DNA from: an uncultured delta proteobacterium
GTDB lineage: Bacteria > Myxococcota_A > Polyangia > Fen-1088
Length of the DNA: 64,000 bases
NCBI GenBank assembly: GCA_963767925.1
Contig: CAVYGB010000003.1
Span: forward strand, 19,734-83,733
Reading direction: 5' to 3'
The notes beneath the pieces were generated by a model that searched no databases, was not told the DNA's origin, and worked only from the letters and a program-made list of their open reading frames with translations. Shown here one piece after another: positions 14,291 to 32,733 of this stretch. The first letter of the stretch is position 1; each line of letters opens with the position of its first letter. Position numbers and translations under genes: made by a program.

Positions 14291-14752
14291 TCAGCTCCGG
14301 ATGTTGCTGACGGCCGATTTGGCGGTGTCGTGCGCGGACTTCAGGACGTTGCTGAGGGTGGTGAAGCGGCGGTTCTCGTCCTGGACGTTCTGCTGCAGGT
14401 TGAGGAGCTGGAGGTTGAAGCTCTGGCTCTCGCGCTGCATGGCAAACATCTGCGACATCTCCGCGCCCTGGGTCGGCGCGTTCATCACGCCGGCCGCGCC
14501 GCCCGCGCCACCGCCACCGCCACCCGCGCCGCCGCCTCCGGTGAGGGCGCCCCCCAGGACCTGACTGCCGGCCTCGCGGACCGCAGCCGCGAGCACCGGG
14601 CCCCCGACGAGGCCGTTGTTCGACTGGGCGCCACTGACCACCGCCTGGTTTCCCGACAGCACCTGGCCAAACGGGGTGGAGGGCGCCTGACGGACCTTGG
14701 GAGCCTCCATCGGCATGGCGGGCGAGTTGGGATCGACGCGTGGGCTGGACAT
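14291..14752 (-). CDS. Small Gly-rich protein with T3SS needle/filament-like C-terminus (paralog A)
   Basis: AGGAGG RBS; last 56 aa identical to 32228-32710; ends FTTLSNVLKSAHDTAKSAVSNIRS. Confidence 0.7.
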   Translation of the reverse strand: MSSPRVDPNSPAMPMEAPKVRQAPSTPFGQVLSGNQAVVSGAQSNNGLVGGPVLAAAVREAGSQVLGGALTGGGGAGGGGGGAGGAAGVMNAPTQGAEMSQMFAMQRESQSFNLQLLNLQQNVQDENRRFTTLSNVLKSAHDTAKSAVSNIRS

Positions 14753-14777
14753 TCTCGATTGCCTCCTGCGGCTATCT

Positions 14778-14801
14778 TCGGACACCAGGGAAAAAGGTTG
14801 C
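14778..14801 (-). promoter_or_regulatory. GCAAC-N15-CCGA putative alternative-sigma promoter
   Basis: Minus strand gcaac ctttttccctggtgt ccga, 10 nt before AGGAGG; same motif at 32734, 32828, 43780. Confidence 0.55.
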
Positions 14802-14829
14802 TAGGAATTATCGCCAGTGATGATGCATT

Positions 14830-14854
14830 GCACACAAGGGCCCCTTTTGTGTGC
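14830..14854. promoter_or_regulatory. Inverted repeat GCACACAA-N9-TTGTGTGC, putative operator
   Basis: Perfect 8-bp IR in the AT-richer divergent intergenic region. Confidence 0.4.
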
Positions 14855-15033
14855 TGCGGCGGTTACAATGATGAGGTGTGTAGCGTGTTCGTTACCCTTG
14901 CTTCTCGTCCCCGGACCGGGTCGTCGGACCCGGCGCGGGGCCCGTACGCCTCGCCCCCGGGACTGGATGGGGCCGCTCGCTCGCGCGACGGCGTTCCGGC
15001 ACTCCAGTCGGAGCCCCCGTGTCGCCGCGGTTG

Positions 15034-17520
15034 ATGGCGCGGCTTGAGCGGGCGCTCGGCGGCGCCGCCGCCCGCGCGCATCGCCGCCCGCTGCCGGCCC
15101 TGCTGATCGCCCTCGGCCTTGTCGGCCTGGGGGTCTGGTCCGCGTCGCGGCTGAGCCTCAACACGGATCTCACCGAGCTCTTGCCCCGGTCCTTCGAGAG
15201 CGTGCAGGGGCTGGACAAGCTGAAGGACAACTTCGGCGGCATCGGCTACGTCGCGGTCGCCGGCTACGGGGCCGAGCCGGAGGGCCTGCGCCGCTTCGCC
15301 CGCGAGATGGCGCCCAAGATCGAGGCCCTGCCCGGCATCCGCTTCGTCGAATACGAGCGGGCGAACGCCTTCTTCGAGGACCGGGCCCTCTATTACCTGT
15401 CGCTCGAGGATCTCGGCGAGGTCGAGCAGCGGATCCGGGCCCGCGAGAAATACGAGCGCCGCCAGAAGAACCCGATGTACATCAAGCTCGATAAGGAGGA
15501 AGAGCCGTCGCTCGACTTCTCCGACATCGAGGCGAAGTACAGCGGCCAGTCCTCGCGCCGGCTGTCGGGCGACGGCGAGGCCTATTACCTCGACCCTCGC
15601 GAGAAGATGGTCGTGTTGCTGGCCAAGCCCGAGGGCAACTCGACCGACCTGGGCTTTTCCCGCAGCGTTGTCGGCCAGGTCGAGAAGCTCCTGGCCCAGC
15701 AGGACCTCCGCGCGTACGGCCCCGAGTTCAAGGTCCAGCTCACCGGCACGTACAAGAAGAAGGTCGACCAGCAGGCCCAGATCGCCCACGACCTCTCCTC
15801 CGCCTCGACGGTCGCCCTGGCCCTGCTGTTCGGCTATCTGCTGTTTCACTTTCGCAGCCTGCTGGCGGTGGTGTTCAACCTGCTGCCGGTGCTGGCCAGC
15901 CTGGCCTGGACCTACGGGGTGGTCGGCTGGATCTACGGCTCGGTCAACCTGCTCACCGGCTTTCTGGCGGCGATCCTCGGCGGCCTCGGCATCGAGCACG
16001 GGATCCACCTGCTGGGGCGCTACGAGGCCCTGCGCCAGCGGGGTGACAGCTCGGAGGCCGCCACCCGGGAGGCCTTCACCCACACCGGCCTGGCGGCGCT
16101 GATCTCCGCGCTGGTGGCGGCGGTGACCTTCCTCTCGCTCGCCATCTCCGAGTTCCGCGCCTTCCGCGAGTTCGGGGTCATCGCGGCCATCGGCATGGTG
16201 CTGGTGGTGGGGGCCTACGTCCTTGTGTTGCCCGCCCTGCTGGGCCTGGCCGGCCGCCTGGGCTGGCGGCCCTCGAGCGCGGTGGCGACCGGCAGCCGCT
16301 CCGAGCTGGCCCGCTGGCTCCTGCTCCCCCGCTTCCGCCGGGCGGTGGCGATCGGCATGGGGGTCTGGCTGGGGGCGCTGTGCCTCAACGCCCCCAACGC
16401 CACCTTCAACTACGACTTCGCCGCGCTCGAGGACAACAGCTTGCCCTCGTTCATCTACGACAAGCTCACCAACAAGGTGCTCGGCTATTCGCAGACGCCG
16501 GTGGTGGTCTTGACCTCCGATCCCGCGACCGAGCGGGCGGTGGTGGCCGAGCTGAGCCGGCGCAAGAAGGAGCTCGGCAAGGCCTCGACCGTCGACTTCG
16601 TCGCCGCGCTCGACGATCTGGTGCCGCAGCAGCAGCCCGAGAAGCAGGCCCTGCTCGTCTCGATCGGCGAGGTGCTCGCCAAGGTGAAGCGCGACGGGTT
16701 GTCCGAGGACCAGCGGAGCAAGTTCGACGACCTCCAGAAGGCGGTCGCCGCCCAGCCCTTCACCCGGGCCGATCTGCCGGCCAGCGTGCGCCGCCAGTTC
16801 ATGGGCATCAAGGAAGACCAGACCGGCTTCGTGCTGGTCTTCCCCGCCATCAGCCTGGCAGACGGCAGCAAGGTGCGACAGTTCGCTCAGGAGGTCCGGG
16901 CGATCTCGGCGCCGGGTGGACAGCAGGTGTCGGCCGCCGGCGAGGCGATGATCCTCGCCGACATCATCGAGATGGTCACCCGCGAGATGCCGCGTATCCT
17001 CACTGCGGCGGTGGTCTCGGTGCTGTTGGTGATGGGACTCACACTGGGCAGCTTCAAGCTGGCGGTCCTGTGCCTGTCACCTACCGTGATCTCCCTGATC
17101 GCCCTCACGGGTTTGATGCCGCTGTTCGAGCTGCAGTTCAACTACCTCAACATCATCGTGCTCACCGTGTTGATCGGTGTGACGGTGGACGCCGGGGTGC
17201 ACCTCGTGTCGCGCCTGCAAACCGCCGGTGAAGACTTCACGGCAGTTTATGGCGAGACCGGCCGCGCCATCTGCGGCGGCATCTTGACCAGCGCGGTCGG
17301 CTTTGGAGCGATGCTCCTGGCCGACCATCCGGGGCTGAACTCGATCGGGCAGATGGCCAACCTGGGATTCGCGACGAATCTTCTCGTCATGTTGTTGGCC
17401 TTCCCGGCCTTCCTGCTACCCATCTTGATGCGCAGGCGGGAGGCGACAGCGGCTGGCGCTGAACAGAACGGCCCTCCCGCTGTGTCCAACGAACCGAAGA
17501 AGGAGAGTGCCCCCCCATGA
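15034..17520 (+). CDS. MMPL/RND family transporter (HpnN-like)
   Basis: Two repeats of periplasmic domain plus TM bundle; GLGIEHGIHL and GVTVDAGVHL motifs. Confidence 0.9.
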   Translation: MARLERALGGAAARAHRRPLPALLIALGLVGLGVWSASRLSLNTDLTELLPRSFESVQGLDKLKDNFGGIGYVAVAGYGAEPEGLRRFAREMAPKIEALPGIRFVEYERANAFFEDRALYYLSLEDLGEVEQRIRAREKYERRQKNPMYIKLDKEEEPSLDFSDIEAKYSGQSSRRLSGDGEAYYLDPREKMVVLLAKPEGNSTDLGFSRSVVGQVEKLLAQQDLRAYGPEFKVQLTGTYKKKVDQQAQIAHDLSSASTVALALLFGYLLFHFRSLLAVVFNLLPVLASLAWTYGVVGWIYGSVNLLTGFLAAILGGLGIEHGIHLLGRYEALRQRGDSSEAATREAFTHTGLAALISALVAAVTFLSLAISEFRAFREFGVIAAIGMVLVVGAYVLVLPALLGLAGRLGWRPSSAVATGSRSELARWLLLPRFRRAVAIGMGVWLGALCLNAPNATFNYDFAALEDNSLPSFIYDKLTNKVLGYSQTPVVVLTSDPATERAVVAELSRRKKELGKASTVDFVAALDDLVPQQQPEKQALLVSIGEVLAKVKRDGLSEDQRSKFDDLQKAVAAQPFTRADLPASVRRQFMGIKEDQTGFVLVFPAISLADGSKVRQFAQEVRAISAPGGQQVSAAGEAMILADIIEMVTREMPRILTAAVVSVLLVMGLTLGSFKLAVLCLSPTVISLIALTGLMPLFELQFNYLNIIVLTVLIGVTVDAGVHLVSRLQTAGEDFTAVYGETGRAICGGILTSAVGFGAMLLADHPGLNSIGQMANLGFATNLLVMLLAFPAFLLPILMRRREATAAGAEQNGPPAVSNEPKKESAPP

Positions 17521-18185
17521 CAACCGCATGCGACATCGTTGTGCGCCGGCGCCGGCTGCTTATCGCGGCGGCCGCTGGTGGACTGTGGCTGATCGGCGCT
17601 GTCTCACCCACCTGGGCCGCCCCCGCCGCCGGAGAACGCACCGAGGCCCTCATCGCCACCTTCAAGAAGGTGAAGTCGGGGGACAAGCTCACCGCCGCCG
17701 ACCGCAAGGCCAACGAGCAGGTCTTCACCGAGATCGACAAGTTCCTCGACTTCGAGGCGCTCACCACCCGGCCCATCGAGCCGCGCGCGGACAAGTTCAC
17801 GGCCAAGCAGAAGGCGGAGTTTTCCAGCAAGTTTCGCGAGCTGGTCCGGGCCATCGCCTACCCCGACTCGGGCAGCTTCTTCCGGGACGCCAGGATGAAG
17901 TTCGGGGCCCCGGTCGAGAAGGGCGAGGTCACCGTGGTCCCCATCGACGCCAGTGTGCCGAAGGACGATCTCAAGACCAAGCTCGAGTTCCACTGGGCCA
18001 AGAAGGACGGAGCGCTTAAGATCAGCGACGTGGCGTTCGATGGCGACTCGCTCATCAAGGACTACCAGAACCAGTTCGCCCGCATCATCGACAAGGAGGG
18101 CGTGGCCGGTCTGATGAAGAAGCTCGACGAGAAGAAGGCCGAGCTCGATCGGGGCGCGGCCAAGGGGGCCCGGGCAGCGAAATGA
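17517..18185 (+). CDS. MlaC/Ttg2D (HpnM-like) periplasmic lipid-binding protein
   Basis: Signal peptide; FLDFEAL...F..L; ISDVAFDGDSLIKDYQNQFARII; ATGA overlap with MMPL. Confidence 0.85.
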   Translation: MTTACDIVVRRRRLLIAAAAGGLWLIGAVSPTWAAPAAGERTEALIATFKKVKSGDKLTAADRKANEQVFTEIDKFLDFEALTTRPIEPRADKFTAKQKAEFSSKFRELVRAIAYPDSGSFFRDARMKFGAPVEKGEVTVVPIDASVPKDDLKTKLEFHWAKKDGALKISDVAFDGDSLIKDYQNQFARIIDKEGVAGLMKKLDEKKAELDRGAAKGARAAK

Positions 18186-19627
18186 CAGGCCCACGGGCGG
18201 GTCTACTTTCACGACCGCCCGCCCGGGCGCTGAAGCTGTTTTTGCCAGCGCTGCTGGCGCTGGCCGCCCTGCCGGCCGGCGCCGCCGCCCAGACTGCCAC
18301 GCCAGCCGTGAAGACCGAGCCGGCCGCGCGGTCCGGGGCCGAGCCGCGCAAGGTGACGCCCGACGAGGCGGTGGCCATCGCCCTGCGCGACAGCGGGCAG
18401 GTGCTCGAGGCCCAGGGCAAGGTGCAAGAGTGGGTGGGGCGGCTGGCCGAGGTGCAGTCGGTGTTTTATCCCAAGCTGGTCGGGATGGGCTACCTGGCGC
18501 CGATGTTCCGGGTGCGCGACAAGCCCGACCTGCGCAGCGCCCCCGACGTGGAGCGCGACTTCACCGAGTGGGGACCGTACCTGCACCTGCAGGCGGTGCT
18601 GGCCCAGCCCCTCTACACCTTCGGGCGTGTCGCCGCGGGCAAGCAGGCGGCCCAGGCCCGGGTCGAGGTGGAGCGGGCCCGGGTGGAGCAGACCCGCAAC
18701 GTGCTGGCGTTCGAGGTGCGCAAGTTCTACTGGCTGCACCTGTTCGCGCACAGCATGCGCCCCGCCCTGGAGAACGCCCGGGAGATCCTCGACAAGGCCC
18801 AGAACAAGGCCAGGGAGGAGTACGAGGACAACACCGGCAAGGTGACGAACGTCGACATCCAGCGGCTGGCCTTCGCCTCGTCGGAGCTCGACAAGGTCCG
18901 CATCCAGGCCGAGATCGGGGAGGACCTGGCCCTGGCGGCCATGAAACACAGCATGGGGTTGCCCCAGGACGCCCCCGTCGTCGCCGCCGACGAGATGTTG
19001 CCCGACCCGCCCGAGAACCTGCCCCCGCTGCCGGCCCTGCTGAAGAAGGCCTCCGAGGGGCGGCCCGAGTGGACCCAGATCAAGCGGGGCAAGGAGGGCG
19101 CCCTCTCGCTCGAGCAGGCCGAGAAGCTGGCCAACGCGCCGGTGGTCTTCCTGGGCGGGCAGTTCTACGCCGACTGGACCCCCATGCGTCCCGACGTCCG
19201 CAACCCGTACAACTGGGACCCCTACAACCAGATGTTCGGGGGCGTGGCGCTGGGCCTCATGTTCGACTTCGACCCCGTCAAGGCGGCGGCCAAGGCCCAG
19301 CAGGCCCGGGCCCTGCAGACCCAGGTCGAGGGCCTGGAGCGGTTCGCCCGCACCGGCATCCCGATGGAGGTGCGCAAGGCCCACGACGAGGCCGTCCAGG
19401 CCAAGCGCATCGCCGCCGTCGCCGAGGAGGGCTCCACCGCCGCCCGCAAGTGGATGATCTTCGCCGGCGCCGCCTTCGCCACCGGCACCGGCGAGGCCAA
19501 GGACCTGCTCGAGGGCCTGGCCGCCTACCTGCAGGCCAAGCGTGGCCACTACGAGGCCCTGCAGAACATGCAGGTCGCCCTGGCCCAGCTCCTCTACGTC
19601 ACCGGGGAGAGCGGCGGCAAGCCGTAG
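18182..19627 (+). CDS. TolC family outer-membrane efflux protein
   Basis: Signal peptide, QPLYTFGR, RPE, two OEP-like halves; ATGA overlap. Confidence 0.85.
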   Translation: MTGPRAGLLSRPPARALKLFLPALLALAALPAGAAAQTATPAVKTEPAARSGAEPRKVTPDEAVAIALRDSGQVLEAQGKVQEWVGRLAEVQSVFYPKLVGMGYLAPMFRVRDKPDLRSAPDVERDFTEWGPYLHLQAVLAQPLYTFGRVAAGKQAAQARVEVERARVEQTRNVLAFEVRKFYWLHLFAHSMRPALENAREILDKAQNKAREEYEDNTGKVTNVDIQRLAFASSELDKVRIQAEIGEDLALAAMKHSMGLPQDAPVVAADEMLPDPPENLPPLPALLKKASEGRPEWTQIKRGKEGALSLEQAEKLANAPVVFLGGQFYADWTPMRPDVRNPYNWDPYNQMFGGVALGLMFDFDPVKAAAKAQQARALQTQVEGLERFARTGIPMEVRKAHDEAVQAKRIAAVAEEGSTAARKWMIFAGAAFATGTGEAKDLLEGLAAYLQAKRGHYEALQNMQVALAQLLYVTGESGGKP

Positions 19628-19649
19628 CGCACCCGCGAACGCCGGAGGG

Positions 19650-20476
19650 CCCCTCACCCCGCCCTCTCCCCGCTGCCGCGGGGCGAGGGCGAACAATCAG
19701 CGGTGCCCGGTCATCCTCCGAGAGGTGCTCACGACGGATTAGCCGGAGATTTTCGCCCCCCCCGGGCCGGTCATCCTCCGAGAGGTGCTCACGACGGATT
19801 AGCCGGAGATTTTCGCCCCCCCCGGGCCGGTCATCCTCCGAGAGGTGCTCACGACGGATTAGCCGGAGATTTTCGCCCCCCCCCGGGCCGGTCATCCTCC
19901 GAGAGGTGCTCACGACGGATAAGCCGGAGATTTTCGCCCCCCCCGGGCCGGTCATCCTCCGAGAGGTGCTCACGACGGATAAGCCGGAGATTTTCGCCCC
20001 CCCCCGGGCCGGTCATCCTCCGAGAGGTGCTCACGACGGATAAGCCGGAGATTTTCGCCCCCCCGGGCCGGTCATCCTCCGAGAGGTGCTCACGACGGAT
20101 TAGCCGGAGATTTTCGCCCCCCCCCGGGCCGGTCATCCTCCGAGAGGTGCTCACGACGGATTAGCCGGAGATTTTCGCCCCCCCGGGCCGGTCATCCTCC
20201 GAGAGGTGCTCACGACGGATTAGCCGGAGATTTTCGCCCCCCCCGGGCCGGTCATCCTCCGAGAGGTGCTCACGACGGATTAGCCGGAGATTTTCGCCCC
20301 CCCCGGGCCGGTCATCCTCCGAGAGGTGCTCACGACGGATTAGCCGGAGATTTTCGCCCCCCCCGGGCCGGTCATCCTCCGAGAGGTGCTCACGACGGAT
20401 TAGCCGGAGATTTTCGCCCCCCCCGGGCCGTTCGCCCTCGCCCCGCGCAGCGGGGAGAGGGAGGGGTGAGGGGTCT
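19650..20476. repeat. REP-bracketed element with 12 tandem ~60-bp units
   Basis: Unit ccggtcatcctccgagaggtgctcacgacggat(t/a)agccggagattttcg(c)nggg from 19707 to ~20430, flanked by inverted REPs. Confidence 0.95.
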
Positions 20477-20480
20477 CCGC

Positions 20481-21680
20481 TCAGCCGGGTGGGGTCAGGG
20501 TCTTGCGAGGCGGGTTGAAGAACGGGAGCTTGGCCACCCGGGCCGGCACCCGGTACCTCACCGCCTCCACCGTCACCTCCATCTCCAGCGCCGTGCCCGG
20601 CCGGGCCTGCGCGCTCCCCACCAGGGCCAGGGCGATCAGCTTCTTCAGGGTCGGCGACCAGGTTGTCGAGGTCGCCTTGCCGACCTGGATCCCCGCCGCG
20701 AAGACCGGCACCGCCACCCGGGAGGCGGCCGCCGAGATCGCGGGCGGCAGCCCGACCCGCTCGTAGAGCGCCTCGACCGAGGGCCAGTCCACCTCCAGCC
20801 CCACGATCTGGCGGGCCGGACCGCGGGCCTGCTCGGCCGCCAGGGCCCGCTGGCCCACGAAGCTGCTCTTCGACAGGTCGACCAGCCGCCCCAGCCCCAT
20901 CTCGTAGGGCGAGAAGGTCTGGGCCCCGTTGAGCGCCTTGCGGCTGCTGATGAAGTCCACGTCGAGCAGCAGCAGTCCGGCCTCGATGCGGGCGACGTCG
21001 AGGGCCAGCATGCCGGCCGCGTAGAGGTCGAAGGATCGCCCGGCCTCGACCAGCGCGTCCCAGACCGGCAGGGCCTCGCTGGCCGGGAGCCAGATCTCGT
21101 AGCCCAGGTCGCCGGTGTAGCCGGTGCGGGAGATGTCGACCGGCACCCCGGCGATGCGCCCGCGGGTCACCCGGAAGTACTTGAGCCCGTCGATGTCGGC
21201 CTCGGCCACGTGGCGCAGCAGGCGCGCCGACATGGGGCCCTGCAGGGCGAGGGCGGCCAGGGGCTCGGAGATGTCCTCGATCTCCACCTGCAGCCCCACC
21301 GCGTTCTGGTGGAACCAGCGCAGGTTCGGCTCCGCCGCCGTCCAGCGGTAGACGTCCGGCTCCAGGCGGGCCACGGTGCCGTCGTCGAGGACCTTGCCCC
21401 GCTCGTCGCACCAGGGGGTGTAGATCACCTGGCCGACGCCCACCTTGCCGAGGTCCCGCGTGATGATCCGGTCGACCAGGCGGGTGGCGTCGCGCCCGCT
21501 CAGCCGGTACTTGTAGAGCGGGCTGATGTCGATGAGGGCGGCGGCGTTGCGGATGGCGTTGTATTCGTGCTCGTGGTGCGGCTCGTAGGAGCTGACGGCG
21601 TAGTAGCCGGACCACTCGCGGTAGTTGAGGCTCTCGCACAGCGAGAAGGTGCGGGCGTGAAAGGCGGTTCCGATCGGCAT
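20481..21680 (-). CDS. Aminomethyltransferase family protein (GcvT-like)
   Basis: EYNAIRNAAALIDISPLYK, GKVLDDG, SRTGYTGDLGYEIW, ARIEAG. Confidence 0.9.
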   Translation of the reverse strand: MPIGTAFHARTFSLCESLNYREWSGYYAVSSYEPHHEHEYNAIRNAAALIDISPLYKYRLSGRDATRLVDRIITRDLGKVGVGQVIYTPWCDERGKVLDDGTVARLEPDVYRWTAAEPNLRWFHQNAVGLQVEIEDISEPLAALALQGPMSARLLRHVAEADIDGLKYFRVTRGRIAGVPVDISRTGYTGDLGYEIWLPASEALPVWDALVEAGRSFDLYAAGMLALDVARIEAGLLLLDVDFISSRKALNGAQTFSPYEMGLGRLVDLSKSSFVGQRALAAEQARGPARQIVGLEVDWPSVEALYERVGLPPAISAAASRVAVPVFAAGIQVGKATSTTWSPTLKKLIALALVGSAQARPGTALEMEVTVEAVRYRVPARVAKLPFFNPPRKTLTPPG

Positions 21681-21695
21681 GTGTCCTCGCGGGGG

Positions 21696-23402
21696 TCAGC
21701 CCAGGTCCCTGAGGATCTCTCGGCTGGCGTTGGCGCCCGAGGCGCCGGTGATCAACCCGGCGCCCCCGGGGTGGGTCCCCGAGCCGCACAGGTACAGGCG
21801 GGCGACGGGGCTGCGGTAGCGCGCCCAGCCGACCAGCGGCCGGAAGGCGAAGAGCTGGTCGAGGGCCGGCTCGCCGTGCAGCAGGTGCCCGCCGCTGAGG
21901 CCGTACTCGCGCTCGAGGTCGAGGGGGGTGAGCACCTGCTGCCCCACGATCACCTTCGGCAGGTCGGGGGCGTATTCGGCCAGGGTCTCGATCACCACCC
22001 GGGCCACCTCCTCGCGTTGCCGCTCCAGGGCGAGGTCGAGGTGGGCGCCGTCGTGGCCGTGGCCGTGGCGCTTGTCGGCGCCGTTGCCGGTGCCGTGCCC
22101 GTTGCCATGGCCGTTGCCGTGCCCGTTCCGGCGGCCGGTAGCGTCGGGCAGGTAGGGGACGAACTGGGCGTGGATCGACATCACGTGGCCACCGGAGGGG
22201 GCCAGGCCGGGATCGAGCAGAGTGGGGATGCTGACGTCGAGGTAGGGCCGGGGCGAGATCTCCCCGTATTTGGCGGCGTCGTAGGCCCGCTCGAGGTAGT
22301 CGATGCTGGGGCCGATGTGGATGCGCCCGCTCAGCGCCTCCACCCCGGTGTTGTCGCCGAGGGGCGTGCGGGTCTTCCAGCGCGGCAGCCGCGACAGCGC
22401 CAGGTTGACCTTGGCCGCGGTGCCCACGCAGCGGTAGTTGCGGATCTTCCCCACGAACTCGGGGCCCAGGGTGGCGGCGTCGAGCAGGCCCAGGAAGGTG
22501 CGGTGGGGATCGGCGCTCGACACGACCGCGGAGGCGGCGATCTCCTCGCCGCTGTCGAGCACCACTCCGGTGGCGGCCCCGCCCCGGACGGCGATGTGGG
22601 CCACCCGGGCGCCCGTGCGGATCTCCGCGCCGGCCGCCCGCGCGGCGGCGGCCAGGGCGTCGCTGAGCGCGCCCATGCCGCCCTTCGGGAACAGGGCGGG
22701 GGCGGTGGCCTGCCCGTCGAGGGCGGCCTGCAGCAGGATGCCCACGCTGGTGCCGGCCGAGCGGGGCCCGGCGAAGCTGGCGTGGATGCCGCGGGCGGCG
22801 ATGGCCGCCCGCAGGAGCTCGCTCTCGAACCACTCGCTGGCGAAGTCGGAGACCGCCATGGGTCCCCAGCGGATCACCCGGTAGGCGTCGCGCTTGCCCA
22901 GCCCGCGCACGCGCTTGCCGAGCTTCAGCAGGTTCCACAGGTCGCGGCCGCTGGGATCGCCGGTGTCGGGCGGGGTCATCGACAGCAGGGGGGCCAGGGC
23001 GCCGCCGATGCGGGCCAGGGTGGCGGCGAACTCGGGGTAGACCTCGGCGTCGCGCCCGCCGAGGGCCTTGAGGTCGGCGGCGGTCTGCCCGGGGTCGTCG
23101 CGCAGGGCCAGCGAGGGGCCGTCGAGCGCGGGGGCGAACAGCCGCACCTTCGGCACCAGCCACTGCAGCCCGTGCCGTTCGAGGGCCAGCTCGCGCGCCA
23201 CCCGGGGCAGCAGGGGACCGGCCGAGTGGGTCACGGTGGGGCAGCGGAAGCCGGGGTGGATCTCCTCGGTGACCGCCCGCCCGCCCACGGTGGCGCGCGC
23301 CTCCAGCACCACCGGCCGCAGCCCGGCCCGGGCCAGGTAGGCGGCGGTGGTGAGGCCGTTGGGCCCCGCGCCGATGACGACGACCGTGCGATCGCGGGCC
23401 AT
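21696..23402 (-). CDS. Phytoene-desaturase-like FAD/NAD(P) oxidoreductase
   Basis: IGAGPNGLTTAAYLARAG, PKGGMGA, LYLCGSGTHPG; carries a His/Gly-rich insertion. Confidence 0.88.
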   Translation of the reverse strand: MARDRTVVVIGAGPNGLTTAAYLARAGLRPVVLEARATVGGRAVTEEIHPGFRCPTVTHSAGPLLPRVARELALERHGLQWLVPKVRLFAPALDGPSLALRDDPGQTAADLKALGGRDAEVYPEFAATLARIGGALAPLLSMTPPDTGDPSGRDLWNLLKLGKRVRGLGKRDAYRVIRWGPMAVSDFASEWFESELLRAAIAARGIHASFAGPRSAGTSVGILLQAALDGQATAPALFPKGGMGALSDALAAAARAAGAEIRTGARVAHIAVRGGAATGVVLDSGEEIAASAVVSSADPHRTFLGLLDAATLGPEFVGKIRNYRCVGTAAKVNLALSRLPRWKTRTPLGDNTGVEALSGRIHIGPSIDYLERAYDAAKYGEISPRPYLDVSIPTLLDPGLAPSGGHVMSIHAQFVPYLPDATGRRNGHGNGHGNGHGTGNGADKRHGHGHDGAHLDLALERQREEVARVVIETLAEYAPDLPKVIVGQQVLTPLDLEREYGLSGGHLLHGEPALDQLFAFRPLVGWARYRSPVARLYLCGSGTHPGGAGLITGASGANASREILRDLG

Positions 23403-23404
23403 CG

Positions 23405-24985: not shown

Positions 24986-26118
24986 GGCAGCACCTCGAGC
25001 CCGGGCTCGCCCACCCGCTCCACCACCCAGCGGTCGAAGGCTGCGAGCATCTCCTCCCGGTTGGAGTAGGGGCCGGGCCGGTAGCCCCGCGAGCGGATGC
25101 CGGCCTGGGCCAGGTCGGACAGCTCCCAGTCCTGGCGGTTGGTCAGATCCCAGAAGTCGACCGCGTCCGAGGGGTCGAAGCCGGGGCGCTGCACCTCGCT
25201 CTCGTGGAACAGCCACTCACATTCGATGTCGGTGCGATCGACCCCCCGGGGATCGAAGCGGAAGGTGACGACGTAGTCCGGGTGCAGGTTGATCAGCATG
25301 TTGGGCAAGATCGCGTAGTAGTGGACGGTGCGCAGCTCGTGCGGCTCGAGGCGGGGCAGGGGGCGGCGCCGGGCCTGGACGCTGGTGCTGAGGGTGGTGA
25401 CCCCCTCGCGCAGATCCATGCGCGAGCCCAGGTAGGTCGGCTGGGGCGGCTCGTTCTCCCCGCTCAGGTAGTGCGAGACGCGGTTGAGCTGGGGGTGGGC
25501 GGTCGGGCAGTGCAGGCACTCGTGGTAGTTCTGGACGATGAGCTTCCAGTTGGCCCGCACCTCGTAGCGGCGGTGGTCGGCGACCCGCAGCTCGTCCATG
25601 GCGTAGTTGGCGAAGCGCCGGTCGAGGTCGGCGAGGTGCTCGGCGAAGGGGACGGGCCGGGGCGACAGGTTGATGAAGACGTTCCCCGCCCAGGTGGCCA
25701 CCGCGACCGGGCCCAGGGGGTAGTCGGCCTCCAGGAAGCCGCGCACCTTCTCCATGTGGGGCGCCTGGGCCAGGGTGCCGTCGAGGCGGTAGGTCCAGGC
25801 GTGGTAGGGACAGCGGATCCGGCCGGGCAGGCTGCCCCGCTGCTCGCTGCACAGGCGGGTGCCCCGGTGGCGGCACACGTTGTGGAAGGCCCGCACCTGG
25901 CCGCGCTCGTCGCGCAGCACCAGCACCTCGGCGTCGGCGATCGGGAACAGGAAGTAGTCCCCCGGCCGGGGGATGCGGTCGGCCCGCCCCGCGTAGAGCC
26001 ACATCTCGAGGTGGATGCGCTCGAGCTCGCGCCGGTACCAGGCCGGGTCGGTGTAGACCCGGGCCGGCAGGGTCCTGGTGCCGGCGTCGCTGATCGGGCG
26101 GTCGTTGACCGGGATCAA
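24982..26118 (-). CDS. Rieske non-heme iron oxygenase alpha subunit (betaine/choline-oxygenase-like)
   Basis: NVCRHRG...CPYHAW Rieske motif, NWKL..QNYHECLHCPTAH, QD; TTG start overlaps IclR stop. Confidence 0.9.
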   Translation of the reverse strand: MIPVNDRPISDAGTRTLPARVYTDPAWYRRELERIHLEMWLYAGRADRIPRPGDYFLFPIADAEVLVLRDERGQVRAFHNVCRHRGTRLCSEQRGSLPGRIRCPYHAWTYRLDGTLAQAPHMEKVRGFLEADYPLGPVAVATWAGNVFINLSPRPVPFAEHLADLDRRFANYAMDELRVADHRRYEVRANWKLIVQNYHECLHCPTAHPQLNRVSHYLSGENEPPQPTYLGSRMDLREGVTTLSTSVQARRRPLPRLEPHELRTVHYYAILPNMLINLHPDYVVTFRFDPRGVDRTDIECEWLFHESEVQRPGFDPSDAVDFWDLTNRQDWELSDLAQAGIRSRGYRPGPYSNREEMLAAFDRWVVERVGEPGLEVLP

Positions 26119-26888
26119 GGCCGCCTCCAGCCGAGGCGCTCGGAGATGCTGTCGGCGGCGGCGGGCAGATCGCGGGCGATGCGGGCGACAACCGCCGGGG
26201 TGAACCGGCTGCGGGGACCACCCACGCTCACGGCGGCGATGATCGCCCCGGCGCCGGCCCGCACCGGGGCGCCGACCGCCACGAAGCCGGGCTCCAGCTC
26301 CTCCACGCTGGTGGCGTAGCCGCGCGCGTCCACCCGGGCCAGCTCGCGGCGCAGGGCGGTGGGGGTCACGATGGTGCGGGGGGTGAAGGCGGCCAGCGGG
26401 GAGCGGGTGCGCTCCTGCCGCTCGTCCTCGCCCAGCCCGGCCAGGAGCACCTTGCCGGTCGAGGTGGCGTGCGCCGGCCAGCGGGTGCCCAGCGAGGGCA
26501 TGGCCGCGATCACGTGGCTGCCCACCACCTCGTCGACGATGAGCACCTCGTCGTCGACGAGCACCTCGAGGGTGATGGTCTCGCGGGTGGCCGCCGCCAG
26601 CGCCAGCAGGGCCGGCCGCCCCGCGGCCAGCAGGGCGCGGCTGCCGAGGGCCTGCCCGGCCAGCCGTGCCACCTCCGCCCCGATCTGGTAGGCCTCGCCG
26701 TCGGCGGTCCGCTCCACCAGCCCCGCGCTCTCCAGCGCCGACAGCAGGCGGAAGGCGGTGGTCTTGTTGAGGTCCACCGCCCGGGCCAGGTCCGACAGCC
26801 GCCGGCCCGGTCCGCCCTGCCCACAAGCCTTCAGCAAGCGGACGGCCCGCTGGACCGCCTGCGTTCCCGGATAAGCTGCCTGTTTCAT
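26115..26888 (-). CDS. IclR family transcriptional regulator
   Basis: HTH LNKTTAFRLLSALE; HATSTGKVLLA; GYATSVEE. Confidence 0.92.
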   Translation of the reverse strand: MKQAAYPGTQAVQRAVRLLKACGQGGPGRRLSDLARAVDLNKTTAFRLLSALESAGLVERTADGEAYQIGAEVARLAGQALGSRALLAAGRPALLALAAATRETITLEVLVDDEVLIVDEVVGSHVIAAMPSLGTRWPAHATSTGKVLLAGLGEDERQERTRSPLAAFTPRTIVTPTALRRELARVDARGYATSVEELEPGFVAVGAPVRAGAGAIIAAVSVGGPRSRFTPAVVARIARDLPAAADSISERLGWRRP

Positions 26889-26899
26889 ATTGTGAAACA
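26881..26899. promoter_or_regulatory. Palindrome TGTTTCA-N5-TGAAACA over the IclR start codon (likely IclR operator)
   Basis: tgtttcatattgtgaaaca, an AT-rich perfect 7-bp IR in GC-rich DNA. Confidence 0.65.
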
Positions 26900-27020
26900 C
26901 CCAGTGCGCATCCTGAAACCGGACCGTAGCCGAGCCCCCGGCCAGGGTCAACCGCGCGCCGGCTGGCCATGCCGTTCGGTCAGGCGGAGCTTCACCTCTC
27001 CGGCGGGGCGCCGCGCCTAT

Positions 27021-27080
27021 CACCTCTCCCCGCGGTCTTCCGTGGGAGAGGTCGGCGCGTCTGCGCGCCGGGTGAGGGGC
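27021..27080. repeat. Solitary REP-like palindrome (related copies at ~5440-5530, ~31478-31510, ~50648-50680)
   Basis: cacctctccc..gggagaggtcggcgcgtctgcgcgccgggtgagggg; near-identical tail at 5474-5503. Confidence 0.6.
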
Positions 27081-27122
27081 CTCCGGCCTGGCCCCCCCCT
27101 CGCCCAACCAGGCGGGATCTTT

Positions 27123-27929
27123 CTACTCGGCTTCGCGCAGCGTATCGAAGAGGCGCTCGGCGATCAGCTCGTGCCCGCGAGGGCCGGGGTGGAAGCGGTC
27201 GCCCGCCAGGCGTTCGGGGCGCTCGGCGAACAGATCCGCCACCGGGACCACCAGGACGTCCTTGTAGTCGAAGGTCGCCCGCTCGAGGGCGCTGTTCCAG
27301 GCCAGGAGCTGCGCCCGCACCTGGGCCTCGGCCGAGGGGAGCACCTCGAAGGGGTTGTAAAGCCCGATCATCCGGATGGGGGCCGTCGGGTTGGCCGTCC
27401 GGATGCGGGTGAGGATCTGCTTGAGGTTGGTGCTGGCCTGGTTCAGGGACACGTCCGACTGCAGCGGGTCGCCCAGGCCGTCCTCGTCCATCCGGCCCCG
27501 CAGGCCGTGGGTCAGGTCGTTGCCCCCGATCGACATGAGGATGAGCTGCGCCTCGCCGATCCGTTGCAACGTTTCCGGGGAGTCGAGCTTGCGCAGCAGG
27601 TCCGAGGTCTCGTCGCCCGGCTCGGCCAGGTTGTTGAGGCTGACCCGGCGGCCCCGATCGCGCAGCTCCTCGACAAGCCGTCCGACGTACCCTCGCTCGG
27701 GCGCGTCGCCGATGCCGTCGGTGACCGAGTCGCCGATCGCCACCACCCGGAAGCCCCCGCTGCCCCAGCCGCGTCCGGCCGCCGCCGCCGGCGGGGGACC
27801 CAGCCGGTCGCCGAACCCGGCGGTCAGGGCGAGATAAAAGCCGATGCCGACGACGACAGCGGAAAACGCTCCCATCGCGACGGGGATGAACCAATCGAGC
27901 GCGCGCCGGCCTGACACGTGCGCTAGCAT
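27123..27929 (-). CDS. GDSL/SGNH hydrolase, membrane anchored
   Basis: IGDSVT, SIGGND, IGLYNPF, DRFHP. Confidence 0.88.
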   Translation of the reverse strand: MLAHVSGRRALDWFIPVAMGAFSAVVVGIGFYLALTAGFGDRLGPPPAAAAGRGWGSGGFRVVAIGDSVTDGIGDAPERGYVGRLVEELRDRGRRVSLNNLAEPGDETSDLLRKLDSPETLQRIGEAQLILMSIGGNDLTHGLRGRMDEDGLGDPLQSDVSLNQASTNLKQILTRIRTANPTAPIRMIGLYNPFEVLPSAEAQVRAQLLAWNSALERATFDYKDVLVVPVADLFAERPERLAGDRFHPGPRGHELIAERLFDTLREAE

Positions 27930-27939
27930 GACATAACCA

Positions 27940-29025
27940 ATGTCGCTGTCGCCTGATCTGCCCGAGGAACGTGGCGCCGCCCCGGCCGGCGCCGCCCCCC
28001 GTGCGGCCGCCGCTCCCGCGGCCGGCCCGGTCCCGCGCCCCTTCGTCGGCCTCGTCGAGAACGAGTGTCTCAAGCTCCTGCGCCGCAAGCGCCCCCAGCT
28101 CGTGTTCCTGGTGCTCGCCATCTTCCTCGGCATCTCGACCTGGGCCCAGTGGCGCCAGCAGACCATGCGCGAGCGCGTCAGCCCCGACGAGGACTGGCGC
28201 CCGCGCACCGAGCGCCGGCTGGCCAACGCCGAGCGCCGCATGCAGACCCGCCGGATCTTCGTGGGTGTGAACCGCACGCTCCGCTTCGAGGCCGTGCGCC
28301 TCCGCTACCACCTCGAGCGCGACATCAACCCCGACGAGCGCACCGGGCCCCTCTTCTCCCGGGCCTTCGCCGCCGTGGCGAGCGCCCTGCTGCTGCCCCT
28401 GCTGGTCACGGTGCTGGTCGCCGACCTGGTCTCCTCCGAGCGCAGCGCCGGCACCATCAAGATGTTGCTCACCCGCCCGGTAAGCCGGTCGCGCGTGCTG
28501 GCCTCCAAGCTGACCGCCATGGCGATCTTCACCAGCAGCCTGGTGCTGGCCTCCGCCGTGCTGTCCTGGCTGATCGCCGGCCTGGCCTTCGGCTGGCAAG
28601 GCTTCGACGCCCCGGTGCTCACCGGCTTCCGCTTCGCCCTCGACGGCCCCGATCTGACCAACGTTCGCATGGCGCCGCTCTGGATCGACACCCTGGCGGC
28701 CTACGGCCTGGTCTGGTTCTCGGCCCTCACCGTGGGCGCCATCGGGGTCACGTTTTCGGTGCTGTTCCGCTCCACCGCCGCCGCCATGGGCACCCTGCTG
28801 GCTCTGGTTGTCTCGGGCGTCCTGCTCGGCCAGCTCGCCTCCGACTGGGAGCCGACCAAGTGGATCTTCGTGACCAACCTGCCGCTCGCCCAGTTCTACT
28901 CGGGCGTCCCCCCGCCCGTGGCCGGCATGACCCTCGGCCACTCGGTCGCCGTGCTCGCCGCCTGGGGCGTCGCCGCCATCGCCGTCGGGATGTTCGTGTT
29001 CAGCCGGCGCGACGTCACGGCCTGA
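27940..29025 (+). CDS. ABC-2 type transporter permease
   Basis: VENECLKL, ADLVSSERSAGTIKMLLTRPVSRSRVLASK, FSRRDV. Confidence 0.88.
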   Translation: MSLSPDLPEERGAAPAGAAPRAAAAPAAGPVPRPFVGLVENECLKLLRRKRPQLVFLVLAIFLGISTWAQWRQQTMRERVSPDEDWRPRTERRLANAERRMQTRRIFVGVNRTLRFEAVRLRYHLERDINPDERTGPLFSRAFAAVASALLLPLLVTVLVADLVSSERSAGTIKMLLTRPVSRSRVLASKLTAMAIFTSSLVLASAVLSWLIAGLAFGWQGFDAPVLTGFRFALDGPDLTNVRMAPLWIDTLAAYGLVWFSALTVGAIGVTFSVLFRSTAAAMGTLLALVVSGVLLGQLASDWEPTKWIFVTNLPLAQFYSGVPPPVAGMTLGHSVAVLAAWGVAAIAVGMFVFSRRDVTA

Positions 29026-29049
29026 TCGGGCGGTCCCGCGGCGCCCGCC

Positions 29050-29225
29050 TCCTTCAGGGGCGGCGCCGCTCCCGGATCAGCGTCTCGACGCCGTAGAGCA
29101 GGCGCTGCAGGCCGAAGGCGAGGGTGTCGTTCTCGGGGGCGGCGGGCGCGCCGGCGAGGATGCGGGCCAGGTTCTCGAAGCGGCCGTCGCTCGACAGCCG
29201 CTCGAGGAGCTGCCGCGTAGTCGGC
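29050..29225 (-). pseudogene. Remnant of a TetR-family C-terminal domain
   Basis: Manual translation QLLERLSSDGRFENLARILAG...DTLAFGLQRLLYGVETLIRER; no HTH or start. Confidence 0.5.
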
Positions 29226-29345
29226 CGGTGCGTTCAGACGTGCCCAACCCGAACGTACTTCGTCCACGGGCTTTCGGGCCGGACAGCAAACGAAAAAACC
29301 CTCCCCCTCCCGGACACCGGGAGGAGGAGGTGGGTGGCGCGCTTG

Positions 29346-29894
29346 TCACCGGGCGCCGGTGGTGGTGTCCTCCGGCGCGGGCGGGCCCTTGTGGCCCCGG
29401 CGGCCGTGTTTGCCCTGCATCTTGCCGCGCATCTCCTGCAGCTTGGTCCGCTGCTCGGCGGTCAAGATGCCGTCGATCTGGGTGCGCAGGGCCTCGCGCC
29501 GGGCGTGCAGGGCCTTGTGCGCGGCTGCGAGCTGCTCGGTGTTGCCCTTGCCGGCGCGTTCGGCGTCGCGCTGGTCCCGGACCGTCTGGAACAGCTTCTC
29601 CATCTCCGGGCGGGCCGCTTGCTCGGCGCCTCTTATCGCCTCGAGCTGCTGGGCGGTGATGCCCAGCTCGGCGCCGTGGCGCGAGAGCCGCTCGGCGAAC
29701 GAGCCATGAAGGCCCCGGCGATGGCCCCACCGTGGTCCCTTCTGCTCGCCGGGCGCGGCATTGTCTGCCTGGCCCGGCGGCCGGCCCGGCCCGGCCTTGC
29801 CCGGCTGGCCCGGGCTGTCGGCAACCGCGAAGGCCGCCACCGAGGCGCCCGCCAGCAGGCCGACGAGCAACAGGGGTTTCGTGAGCTTCTTCAT
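29346..29894 (-). CDS. Spy/CpxP family periplasmic protein
   Basis: Signal peptide, LGITAQQ and ILTAEQR (LTxxQ) motifs, AGGAG RBS. Confidence 0.8.
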   Translation of the reverse strand: MKKLTKPLLLVGLLAGASVAAFAVADSPGQPGKAGPGRPPGQADNAAPGEQKGPRWGHRRGLHGSFAERLSRHGAELGITAQQLEAIRGAEQAARPEMEKLFQTVRDQRDAERAGKGNTEQLAAAHKALHARREALRTQIDGILTAEQRTKLQEMRGKMQGKHGRRGHKGPPAPEDTTTGAR

Positions 29895-29947
29895 CTGGTC
29901 TTTCTCCTTTTTCCAGGGCGGCGGCTGCCGCCCTCGCTCCCTGTCAC

Positions 29948-29963
29948 AGCAGGACCGATGCCA
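29948..29963 (-). promoter_or_regulatory. Sigma-54 promoter
   Basis: Minus strand TGGCATCGGTCCTGCT = GG-N10-GC, ~55 nt upstream of the Spy/CpxP gene. Confidence 0.55.
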
Positions 29964-30097
29964 GCCCGCGAGGCCCTGGAAATGGCGCTTTTCCGGCCAC
30001 GACGCACCCCGGGCTGCGGGTTGCGCATGGGGGGCTGCGGATCCCGCGCACAAACAACCCGATACAGCCGCCGGCGGGCTCGGTATTGTCGGCCCCC

Positions 30098-31411
30098 GTG
30101 AGCGAGCTGCGGCGATCCTTCGGGCTGTTCGACGCCACCATGGTGAACGTCGGCGTGATGGTCGGGTCGGCGGTGTTCCTCACGGCGGGGGACGTCGCCC
30201 GGGCCTTGCCCCATCCGCTGTTGCAGCTCGGGGTCTGGCTGGTGGCTGCCGTGTTCTCGCTGGCCGGCGCGCTCACCATCGCCGAGCTGGGGGCGTCCCT
30301 GCCCCAGGCGGGTGGGCTGACGGTCTACCTGCGCGAGGCCTTCGGTCCGCCCTGGGGCTTCCTGTACGGCTGGGCGCTGTTCACGGTGATCCAGACGGCC
30401 GCCATCGCCGCGGTGGGGGTCGCCTTCGCCACCTACTGCCGCCACTTCTTCGACCTGTCGCCGCTGGGCGTGCAGCTCCTGGCGGCGGCCATCGTGGCGG
30501 TGCTGAGCGGGCTCAACGCCCTCGGCGTGCGCGAGGGGGTCGTCACCCAGAACCTGTTCACGGTGGCCAAGCTGGCGGTGATGGTCGGGCTGGTGGCGGT
30601 CGCCTTCGGCGGCAGCGGCGGGAGCTGGTCCAACCTGGCGGCGCCCGCGGCCGGCGCGATCCAGCCGATCACCCTGGCCGGCCTGGGCGCGGCCCTCATC
30701 GGCCCGCTGTTCGCGTTCGACGGCTGGATCACCACCAGCTACATCGGCGGCGAGGTGAAGCGCCCGGCGCGCACCTTGCCGCTGGCGGCGCTCGCCTCGG
30801 TCGCCATCGTGGCGGCGCTCTACCTCGCGCTCAACGCCGCCTACCTCTACGTGCTCGGTCCCGGCGAGGTGGCCCGCGCCCCGCTGGTGGCGGCGCAGAC
30901 CGCGCAGGTGCTCCTGGGGCCGCGCGGGGCGGACCTGGCGGCGTTGATGGTGGTCATCGCCACCTTCGGGGCGCTCAACGGCAACATCCTGGCCGGGGCC
31001 CGCGTGCTCTACGCCCTGGCGGCGGCCGGGCTGTTCTGGCGGCGGGTCGAGCGCATCCACCCGCGCTTCGGCACCCCCGCGGCAGCCCTGGCGGCGCAGG
31101 GGCTGGTCTCGGTGGCGCTGGTCTTCACCGGGCGGTTCGACCAGCTCCTGGCGAGCTGCCTGTTCGCCTCCTGGCTGTTCTACGCCCTCGGGGGCGTGGC
31201 GGTCTTCGTGCTGCGCCGCCGGACCGACCTGCCGCGCCCCTACCGCGTGTGGGGCTACCCGGTCGTGCCGGCCCTGTTCGTGGCCTTCGCGCTGCTGCTG
31301 CTGGCGGCGACCATCGCCGCCGCCCCCCGCGACGCCGCCATCGGCACCGCCCTCCTGCTGACCGGCGTCCCCGCCTACTTCCTCTTCAAACGCGCCCGCC
31401 GCCTTCGCTAG
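30098..31411 (+). CDS. APC family amino acid permease
   Basis: GVMVGSAVF, AELG..LPQAGG, FAFDGW..GGEVKRP, RPYRVWGYP. Confidence 0.9.
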   Translation: MSELRRSFGLFDATMVNVGVMVGSAVFLTAGDVARALPHPLLQLGVWLVAAVFSLAGALTIAELGASLPQAGGLTVYLREAFGPPWGFLYGWALFTVIQTAAIAAVGVAFATYCRHFFDLSPLGVQLLAAAIVAVLSGLNALGVREGVVTQNLFTVAKLAVMVGLVAVAFGGSGGSWSNLAAPAAGAIQPITLAGLGAALIGPLFAFDGWITTSYIGGEVKRPARTLPLAALASVAIVAALYLALNAAYLYVLGPGEVARAPLVAAQTAQVLLGPRGADLAALMVVIATFGALNGNILAGARVLYALAAAGLFWRRVERIHPRFGTPAAALAAQGLVSVALVFTGRFDQLLASCLFASWLFYALGGVAVFVLRRRTDLPRPYRVWGYPVVPALFVAFALLLLAATIAAAPRDAAIGTALLLTGVPAYFLFKRARRLR

Positions 31412-31601
31412 CCGCGGGCCGACCGTGCGCTGGCCGCGGACTCTGCTTCAGTCGAGCAAGAACCCGCTGTCTGTTTACCCTCTCCCCACGGCAGAGCACG
31501 GGGAGAGGTGGTGGCCGGGCGCCCGACTGAACTTAGAGCCAGCCGCTGAAACCTGTGGAGAATTTGCCCGATGGGCGAAACGAGGTATCGAGGCCGGGAC
31601 G

Positions 31602-31786
31602 CGTGCTCGTGGGCGTGTTCGAGCTCGTGGGCGTGTTCGAGCGCGTGTTCGTGTTCGAGTTCGTGTGGGGCGAGCGTTGAGCGGCCAGGCGGCTCTCGGT
31701 GCGCGTAAATCACGCGAGCCGAGGCCCGCGGGCCGAACACGCTCACCACACACGGACACGAACTCGCACACGAGCACGACCACGAC
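31602..31786. repeat. Inverted low-complexity hexamer repeats (CGTG(T/C)T / GAGCAC-like)
   Basis: Arm 31602-31666 cgtgctcgtgggcgtgttcgag... is complementary to arm 31747-31786 cacggacacgaactcgcacacgagcacgac. Confidence 0.6.
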
Positions 31787-31800
31787 AGCCGCGGCAGTCA

Positions 31801-32130
31801 TCAGGGTTGGTGGCGGTGCATGCCGGCGAGCCGAGTGAGCATCGCGCACAGCCGGTCGAGCAGAGACATCACCGCTTCGATCTCGGTATCGGGAGCAAGT
31901 CCCAGGATTGCAACCGCCTCCAAGGCGGCTGCCGCCTCGGACGCTTCGCCTCTGGCGGTGCGGAACCGTGAGATCCTGTCGGCGCCCGTTCGGCTGGATG
32001 CCTCGGCGATGCCCAGGTATGCCGACAACAGCGCGCGCCGAAGCTGGTCCTGCAACGTCGCATACCCGCGTGGCATTCTCCGCGCAAGAGCGTCGCCCAA
32101 GCGTAGAGCATCGCGGGCCACGCAACGCAA
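31801..32130 (-). CDS. Four-helix-bundle protein (23S rRNA IVS-protein-like family), N-terminus possibly eroded
   Basis: LQDQLRRA..S..L.IAE....RF..ARGEASE..A.L ... AMLTRL; only a TTG start. Confidence 0.75.
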   Translation of the reverse strand: MRCVARDALRLGDALARRMPRGYATLQDQLRRALLSAYLGIAEASSRTGADRISRFRTARGEASEAAAALEAVAILGLAPDTEIEAVMSLLDRLCAMLTRLAGMHRHQP

Positions 32131-32227
32131 AGCCGAGAATTACTTAGCCTTCGTTCGGCTCGCCTGTGCGCTGATTGCTTTCAACGCTGCCTCTCGTGCG
32201 TAATTCACAGGTTTCAGCGGCTCGCTC

Positions 32228-32710
32228 CTAGCTGCGGATGTTGCTGACGGCCGACTTGGCGGTGTCGTGGGCGGATTTGAGGACGTTGCTGAGGGTGGTG
32301 AAGCGGCGGTTCTCGTCCTGGACGTTCTGCTGCAGGTTGAGGAGCTGGAGGTTGAAGCTCTGGCTCTCGCGCTGCATGGCGAACATCTGCGACATCTCGC
32401 CGTTCTTGCTGGTGGCGCCCGCGGCACCGCCGGCCGCACCGCCGAGGCCACCCGCGGCACCCCCCCCACCGCCGCCGCCACCTCCACCGCCGCCGCTGAC
32501 GGCGCCGAGGAGCTGACCGCCCGCCTCGCGGACCGCGGCGGCCAGGACCGGCCCACCGACGAGGCCGGTCACGACCTCGGCGCCGGTCAGCAGGACGTTG
32601 GCCCCGCTCGACAGCACCTGGCTGAACGGCGTGGCTGGTGGAGCCGCGGTCTGGCGCTGTGTGGTCTGGGCGACCTGAACCGACGTTGTCGCGGGGTCGA
32701 TCTTGGACAT
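32228..32710 (-). CDS. Small Gly-rich protein with T3SS needle/filament-like C-terminus (paralog B)
   Basis: AGGAGG RBS; MSKIDPATT...; last 56 aa identical to paralog A. Confidence 0.7.
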   Translation of the reverse strand: MSKIDPATTSVQVAQTTQRQTAAPPATPFSQVLSSGANVLLTGAEVVTGLVGGPVLAAAVREAGGQLLGAVSGGGGGGGGGGGGAAGGLGGAAGGAAGATSKNGEMSQMFAMQRESQSFNLQLLNLQQNVQDENRRFTTLSNVLKSAHDTAKSAVSNIRS

Positions 32711-32733
32711 CCGAATGCCTCCTGGCCTGGTTG

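Follow-up and report, generated by a model that had tools for sequence, protein, structure and literature searches.

A divergent SctF/HrpA-like protein family as the probable needle subunit of myxobacterial non-flagellar type III secretion systems

Non-flagellar type III secretion systems (T3SS) of myxobacteria have been described as devoid of the needle subunit SctF (stated in excerpts of PMC3459982, PMC10433427, PMC10849154 and PMC12075869, and likewise in an excerpt of PMC11509652), and excerpted text of PMC10196010 calls these systems degenerate. Both systems of Myxococcus xanthus, T3SS* (MXAN_2434-2464) and T3SS(2) (MXAN_5643-5654), were published without a needle homolog. The window analyzed here is a stretch of 64,000 nucleotides from contig CAVYGB010000003.1 of an uncultured delta proteobacterium (Myxococcota_A; Polyangia; Fen-1088). 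It contains two related genes, copy A (14291-14752, 153 aa) and copy B (32228-32710, 160 aa), which an earlier note had compared with needle and filament subunits, citing the needleless description of T3SS*. Unlike the M. xanthus genome, the window genome has a scattered T3SS and a duplicated gene for the candidate subunit. The product of these two genes is probably the needle or filament subunit of the non-flagellar T3SS of myxobacteria: an SctF homolog that has diverged, is much extended at its N-terminus and comes nearer in layout to plant Hrp pilins. Four results established in silico point to this assignment: the C-terminal tail is remotely homologous to SctF, the gene takes the sctF position in intact clusters, the family co-occurs with sctJ, and MXAN_2434 is a member.

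Both open reading frames were verified on the minus strand with coding-like codon use, and the shared motifs, Gly linker and identical 56-aa tail claimed for them were found at both places. Each has a syntenic copy in G001, a genome of the same genus (genomes are numbered G, loci L and contigs C; G000 holds the window). The tail, a needle-like C-terminal helix, occupies with the stop codon 14291-14461 in copy A and 32228-32398 in copy B, and only 8 of these 171 nucleotides (stop included) differ, six at synonymous third positions, in keeping with the claim of synonymous-site differences, and a further two in the stop codon. It is preceded by a Gly-rich linker in copy A (residues about 72-88; 14489-14539) and by a Gly/Ala-rich linker in copy B (residues about 73-98; 32417-32494), and an identical ribosome-binding motif, CAGGAGGCA, lies 5' of copy A (14760-14768) and copy B (32716-32724), all on the same strand as the genes. 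Over their entire lengths the proteins are 64-66% identical, with 36 identities in the first ~70 residues: the N-termini are variable, as had been noted, but the halves are still homologous rather than unrelated. An AlphaFold model of copy B has low-confidence helices at residues 29-51 and 56-71, a linker with pLDDT <50 and a long confident helix at residues 102-159. A hydrophobic N-terminal segment is absent from both window proteins and from MXAN_2434, and promoter scans found no promoter.

Copies A and B belong to a large unannotated family of the Myxococcota. One search scored 8000 candidates and yielded 188 relatives, nearly all unnamed proteins (one labelled Polyangia bacterium), and a profile search gave 2210 representatives (50% clustering, E<=0.001), 150 of them listed. 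Some Corallococcus members bear the UniRef label 'Type III secretion protein'. In the Atlas, the family falls into Myxococcota clusters that have no common Pfam family; the two leads there, both below 0.9, are to a cluster in which T3SS_needle_F makes up 11% and to one of HrpA (0.82). In general layout, a disordered N-terminus leads into two helices of low confidence, and a Gly linker connects these to the C-terminal helix, which is 58 residues long and modelled with confidence.

Gene order is the strongest evidence. In close relatives, a single family gene is followed by a conserved gene, termed c2, and an intact operon in G042 consists of the family gene, c2, a sigma factor, sctI, sctJ, a K-like gene, sctL, sctN, sctO and sctQ (labels by similarity). 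In the class of G188, the order is a small E-like gene, the family gene, a tetratricopeptide repeat (TPR) gene, c2, sigma and sctI, in agreement with ascE-F-G-H-I-J of Aeromonas and with the Desulfovibrio cluster. The family gene is thus placed as sctF is, after an E-like gene, before a TPR gene and before sctI-sctJ; this slot, upstream of sctI-sctJ and flanked by chaperone genes, is occupied in relatives and not in the window. In genomes with two loci (the long and short types in an excerpt of PMC3459982), a member heads each locus, as in G293, where family genes precede sctI-sctJ in both. When only the stronger rows are counted (133 family and 134 sctJ matches in 131 genomes, weaker rows and 153 unlisted ones being omitted), 82 of the 134 sctJ genes have a member at most 4.5 kb upstream on the same strand, which is 82 of the 84 that share a contig with one; none lies downstream or on the opposite strand. 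Both sctJ genes are linked to members in 22 of 23 genomes with two.

Several other arrangements accompany these loci. In the small genomes (~2 Mb) G202, G192, G193 and G201, the E-F-G slot is filled by a tandem pair of divergent family genes (L199-L202). In the long T3SS locus, the far end encodes proteins of 72-74 aa amid LcrH-like chaperones (L217:9726-10820 in G308; L212:12666-15891 in G293), and three such tandem proteins in G308 match the tail profile; they are candidates for tip or translocator-like substrates.

Co-occurrence was assessed with SctJ as the marker for non-flagellar T3SS, because FHIPEP by itself did not tell FlhA and SctV apart. Among 151 genomes of the window's phylum, near-full-length SctJ is present in 35 (as read from the table), and the family (E<=1e-5) in 30, all SctJ-positive; it was detected in none of the 116 SctJ-negative genomes at this threshold, with one weak tail match (E 2.7e-4). 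When the five SctJ-positive, family-negative genomes were searched again at E<=1, no credible member was found. Among 131 genomes of the phylum of G188, 112 have both genes, 15 neither, 2 the family only and 2 SctJ only, with a few weak rows on each side. The earlier note had held that its reading would fall if structural likeness to needle or filament subunits, an oligomer prediction and T3SS genes were all lacking; T3SS genes are present in genomes with the family, although no structural match to needles was obtained.

The family extends to M. xanthus. MXAN_2434 of strain DK1622, annotated as hypothetical, is in the same 90% cluster as the long-locus member of G293, scores 59.7 bits with a profile made from the first matches of the window protein, and is 40% identical to copy B over 65 residues; its sole NCBIfam match at E<=0.05 is SctF (E 0.019). 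By these comparisons, the first gene of the T3SS* cluster called 'needleless' is itself assigned to the family. Counted from the family gene in the long locus of G293, sctQ is twelfth, which corresponds to MXAN_2445, the gene identified as sctQ in an excerpt of PMC10196010. The short locus, T3SS(2), also opens with a member, as read in G293 and relatives rather than in DK1622. MXAN_2434 was not found in eight supplementary files of PMC12075869, and literature listings contain no paper naming a myxobacterial SctF, although an earlier remark in subscription papers is possible.

The tail itself resembles SctF. Among 129 members, the commonest Pfam matches at E<=0.1 are T3SS_needle_F (18 members, best 3.3e-4) and HrpA_pilin (8 members, best 1.6e-4; none for the window proteins). 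In a profile-profile comparison with an SctF alignment of 14 rows (from annotated plasmids and one search; 12 of 14 Desulfovibrio-type), the tail aligns over 52 gapless columns with a probability of 80%, E 1.4e-5 and a score of 29.9. The controls score lower: at most 18.7 for 100 column shuffles, 11.7 for the reversed profile, 10.8 for a myxobacterial SctI alignment and at most 20.5 for 20 single proteins, flagellin being highest. With 100 Myxococcaceae-type tails, the probability is 86% and the score 32.3. A hidden Markov model of the tail gives 20.0 bits with Desulfovibrio SctF and 8.7-16.5 bits with 11 of its 12 relatives, the best unrelated G000 protein reaching 7.7. In gapless register, the window tail shares 8 of 38 positions (L, Q, S, N, K, D, N, R) with MxiH and 13 of 38 with Desulfovibrio SctF, and the C-terminal helix has Q, S, K and D conserved in the fixed register expected of SctF (MxiH, AscF and Desulfovibrio SctF have Q, S(N), K and D). 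The needle-like pattern described in the earlier note is thus recovered, and synteny, co-occurrence and a chaperone model concur. Homology of the tail to SctF is remote but specific; the family falls outside PF09392 and TIGR02105 and is filed as SctF-like.

Two other small T3SS subunits were compared. SctI has a C-terminal helix of the same superfamily (SctF against myxobacterial SctI scores 30.8), and the family tail scores 10.8-19.6 against SctI; identity with the inner rod was rejected, as a separate sctI stands between the family gene and sctJ in the same clusters. HrpA pilins (PF09589), from another phylum and cluster type, give the weak profile matches mentioned above. In HrpA, as in the family, the N-terminus is variable and the C-terminus conserved.

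A number of results weigh against a needle subunit. Direct Pfam and NCBIfam scans of both window proteins returned no needle match and nothing useful, and at E<=1 unrelated families lead in the sets of 64 members and 51 tails, the needle family matching 4 and 6. MXAN_2434 scores 15.4 bits with the curated SctF profile against a cut-off of 41.7, and all curated cut-offs are missed. The SctF alignment has few rows, most of them Desulfovibrio-type, and was controlled mostly with single sequences. The median length of 157 aa (241 collected members, fragments included) exceeds the about 80-90 residues expected of SctF (about 83), and the family differs further from SctF in having additional helices, a Gly linker and an N-terminus that is long and disordered. 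The monomer model (pTM 0.31) is one long helix with no confident hairpin. Foldseek gave no match, and VIA-align gave only generic helices and coiled coils (Z<=6.0). PDB sequence searches at E<=10, whether with a single protein, either of two full-length profiles or a profile of the tail, retrieved only Gly-rich or generic chains and no needle chain.

Distribution and context also give cause for doubt. Because the genome counts include kin, their entries are not independent of one another. Within the taxonomic family of the window genome, all 24 of 24 relatives have sctJ and 11 of 24 a strong member, with a contig-end fragment in one more. Ten member-negative relatives were checked, and nine have c2, none with a member beside it; the usual flanking gene abuts c2 in eight of these nine loci, and the losses are real. 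Tail homologs occur beyond T3SS genomes, in an Aminicenantes genome without an FHIPEP match and as a copy on a Spirosoma plasmid, and signal-peptide-like starts were seen in the Aminicenantes protein and in a second G135 copy. Clear orthologs of the E-like and TPR-chaperone genes were not found in G000, and the modelled complex described below is a pair from another genome that may pass by likeness to solved complexes. Finally, a dedicated secretin is not reported for these systems in excerpts of PMC3459982, PMC10433427 and PMC10849154, which sets them apart from SctF-bearing systems.

The tail helix is also found on unrelated N-termini at L001:9746-10207, L083:9544-10083 and L105:5731-6147 (Aminicenantes, a myxobacterium and the Spirosoma plasmid), and is put to use elsewhere besides T3SS. 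In G217, G251 and others (also L207 and L209), up to 14 proteins per genome match the tail profile, including proteins of 270-540 aa that end in a related helix; these perhaps form a wider set of T3SS substrates.

The adjacent TPR gene suggests a chaperone. A model of the G190 tail with the neighboring TPR protein scores 0.81 (best of three controls, 0.36), with contacts agreeing at >=87% and partner pLDDT >=71. The pass mark is reached by 116 of 157 solved pairs and 2 of 215 mismatched pairs, and applies roughly here. Because needle-chaperone complexes have been solved previously, the pass is taken as likeness, not binding. SctF is bound at its C-terminal helix by an SctG-type TPR chaperone, and the modelled contact of the family tail may parallel this. 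The E-like gene has no significant similarity to AscE or to the gene in the E position of Desulfovibrio. For c2, which has a disordered start and a small helical C-terminal domain, no family was found in Pfam or the Atlas, and the best fold match has Z 5.2; an AscH/YopR-type identity fits its position and was set aside, as no likeness was found. c2 frequently lies directly before a FliA-like sigma factor (L194:10654-11852; L092:10246-11376). From this place one might guess at an exported anti-sigma checkpoint of the FlgM kind, a guess without profile or fold support.

In the window genome, the non-flagellar T3SS is dispersed, with six or more loci holding its genes. Present in G000 are sctI, J, L, N, Q, R, S, T, U and V: sigma-sctI-sctJ at C8:3090-3093k, K-like-sctL-sctN at C8:1122-1125k, a weak needle-length-ruler match followed by sctQ at C8:1140k, sctRSTU at C8:2004-2007k, and sctV in pieces at C2:1269203-1271317. 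As replication and housekeeping genes are likewise in pieces at C2:1344-1350k, the breaks in sctV may be assembly (indel) errors; in a quick tree, this SctV falls between the long and short types and is assigned to neither. c2 lies at C8:2790k, and before it, in the ancestral slot, a decayed remnant of a family gene remains (L233; C8:2789667-2790035), matching over 15 residues (E 2e-5 for a target of 367 nt); in G001 this slot is shorter still. The window copies are relocated duplicates, and the ancestral copy has decayed. No other strong copy exists in the 9.3 Mb assembly; the genome-wide count called for earlier adds the remnant and a distant paralog with a related tail (C2:1315984-1316481, E 9.6e-8). 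No T3SS genes lie near copy A or B within the window, so the 'orphan' description holds here; it denotes a derived state, because the whole T3SS of G000 is scattered and the gene is in-operon in other Myxococcota. The paralog locus (L231; C2:1315984-1316870) lies in a low-GC island, where the gene follows a SycD/LcrH-like TPR gene (E 2.7e-6). Flagellar clusters with flagellin, hook, ring and motor genes (C8:502-514k and 556-580k) exist alongside the non-flagellar T3SS.

The tails are 56/56 identical within G000 and within G001, and 42/56 between the two, so that the 'invariant' tail is invariant within one genome only. In quick trees of the eight genes, the 3' 168 nt cluster by genome (support 96 and 95), whereas in the 5' parts the two A copies pair by locus (92) and the B copies are unresolved. 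The 14 tail replacements are found in both copies alike; gene conversion would fit this, as would tight co-adaptation at a polymer interface that the two share. Purifying selection, proposed earlier, agrees with the synonymous-only differences in coding positions; as the sole cause it was rejected, and the identity is better explained by concerted evolution.

For a needle or filament subunit, the disordered N-terminus would serve as the export signal, and the protein would leave via SctRSTUV and nucleate on the SctI rod. Stacking of the C-terminal helices would give a hollow filament that displays the variable N-terminal part and the Gly linker on its surface. Where a TPR gene follows, its product would keep the helix covered in the cytoplasm, in the manner of YscG/PscG. 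In the window lineage, the two relocated copies would retain one shared polymerizing tail while the exposed parts diverge, and such variants could co-assemble or alternate. The earlier proposal of a myxobacterial filament subunit is supported, with the correction that a place away from the export apparatus is a derived state.

How far such a polymer would extend is the point on which the best-surviving alternative turns. An SctF homolog might build no more than a short stub or plug in the periplasm, seated on the inner rod, or might have become dispensable, leaving the system functionally needleless and its substrates passed to a conduit such as a Kil/Tad pilus. The lack of a reported secretin noted above fits this, as do the repeated clean losses in close relatives that retain sctJ and c2, the statement in an excerpt of PMC3459982 that in systems lacking a secretin SctF can remain in the periplasm, and the proposal in an excerpt of PMC12075869 that Kil tips replace the needle. 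A stub is nonetheless unlikely, given the retention in 112 of 114 sctJ-bearing genomes of G188's phylum, the separate sctI already there and a gene in the ruler position between sctO and sctQ; duplication with homogenized tails in two genomes is also easier to explain for an abundant exposed polymer.

Still less likely is a tip, filament-extension or translocator-class substrate with an EspA/SseB/Bsp22-like role. Twice the length of SctF, extra Ala/Gly-rich helices, a faint SseD match of copy A (E 0.35) and further distant paralogs with a related tail in many genomes would suit such a substrate, and for the adjacent TPR protein SycD/LcrH is a better match (E 4e-14) than CdsG (E 0.0016). Against this, EspA, SseB, Bsp22-type and tip families are absent from the 25 Pfam families listed for three member sets, where no direct profile comparison was run; other LcrH-like chaperones with small substrates occupy the far end of the long locus; and the family gene stands in the sctF position, with no other SctF candidate seen in the short locus, where it directly precedes sctI. 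A generic secreted coiled-coil protein with convergent SctF likeness, for which the fold and PDB results and the tails in Aminicenantes and Spirosoma might speak, is highly improbable, as it leaves unexplained the fixed place and orientation before sctI-sctJ in both T3SS loci, the E-F-G-like neighborhood and the register of Q, S, K and D.

As for the surroundings of the genes in the window, copy A is solitary, with a hydrolase gene on one side and an RND/MMPL-type operon on the other. The gene next downstream of copy B, at 31801-32130 on the minus strand, encodes a four-helix-bundle protein (TIGR02436, E 4e-11, over the cut-off), and short repeats lie beyond it at ~31450-31750. Head-to-tail repeats of ~75 bp (seen in translations of open reading frames) are present at ~19700-20480, between an outer-membrane efflux gene and a glycine-cleavage-like operon.

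The family is most likely a divergent SctF/HrpA-like group that would supply the missing needle subunit of the myxobacterial T3SS. The range of the non-flagellar T3SS comes to include Polyangia-type lineages, where its genes are scattered, and candidate chaperones are named. SctF was reported lacking and the route of prey lysis left as an open question in the cited papers; a candidate now heads that very cluster, and the question becomes directly testable in the genetically tractable M. xanthus. It is conceivable, if somewhat short of probable, that the myxobacterial T3SS is not needleless at all: the MXAN_2434 family would form an extracellular filament without a dedicated secretin, delivering lytic effectors into prey, here with two surface variants on one homogenized core. 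If so, this would be an antibacterial injectisome with the earliest-branching needle, in the very branch where models of injectisome evolution assume loss of SctF.

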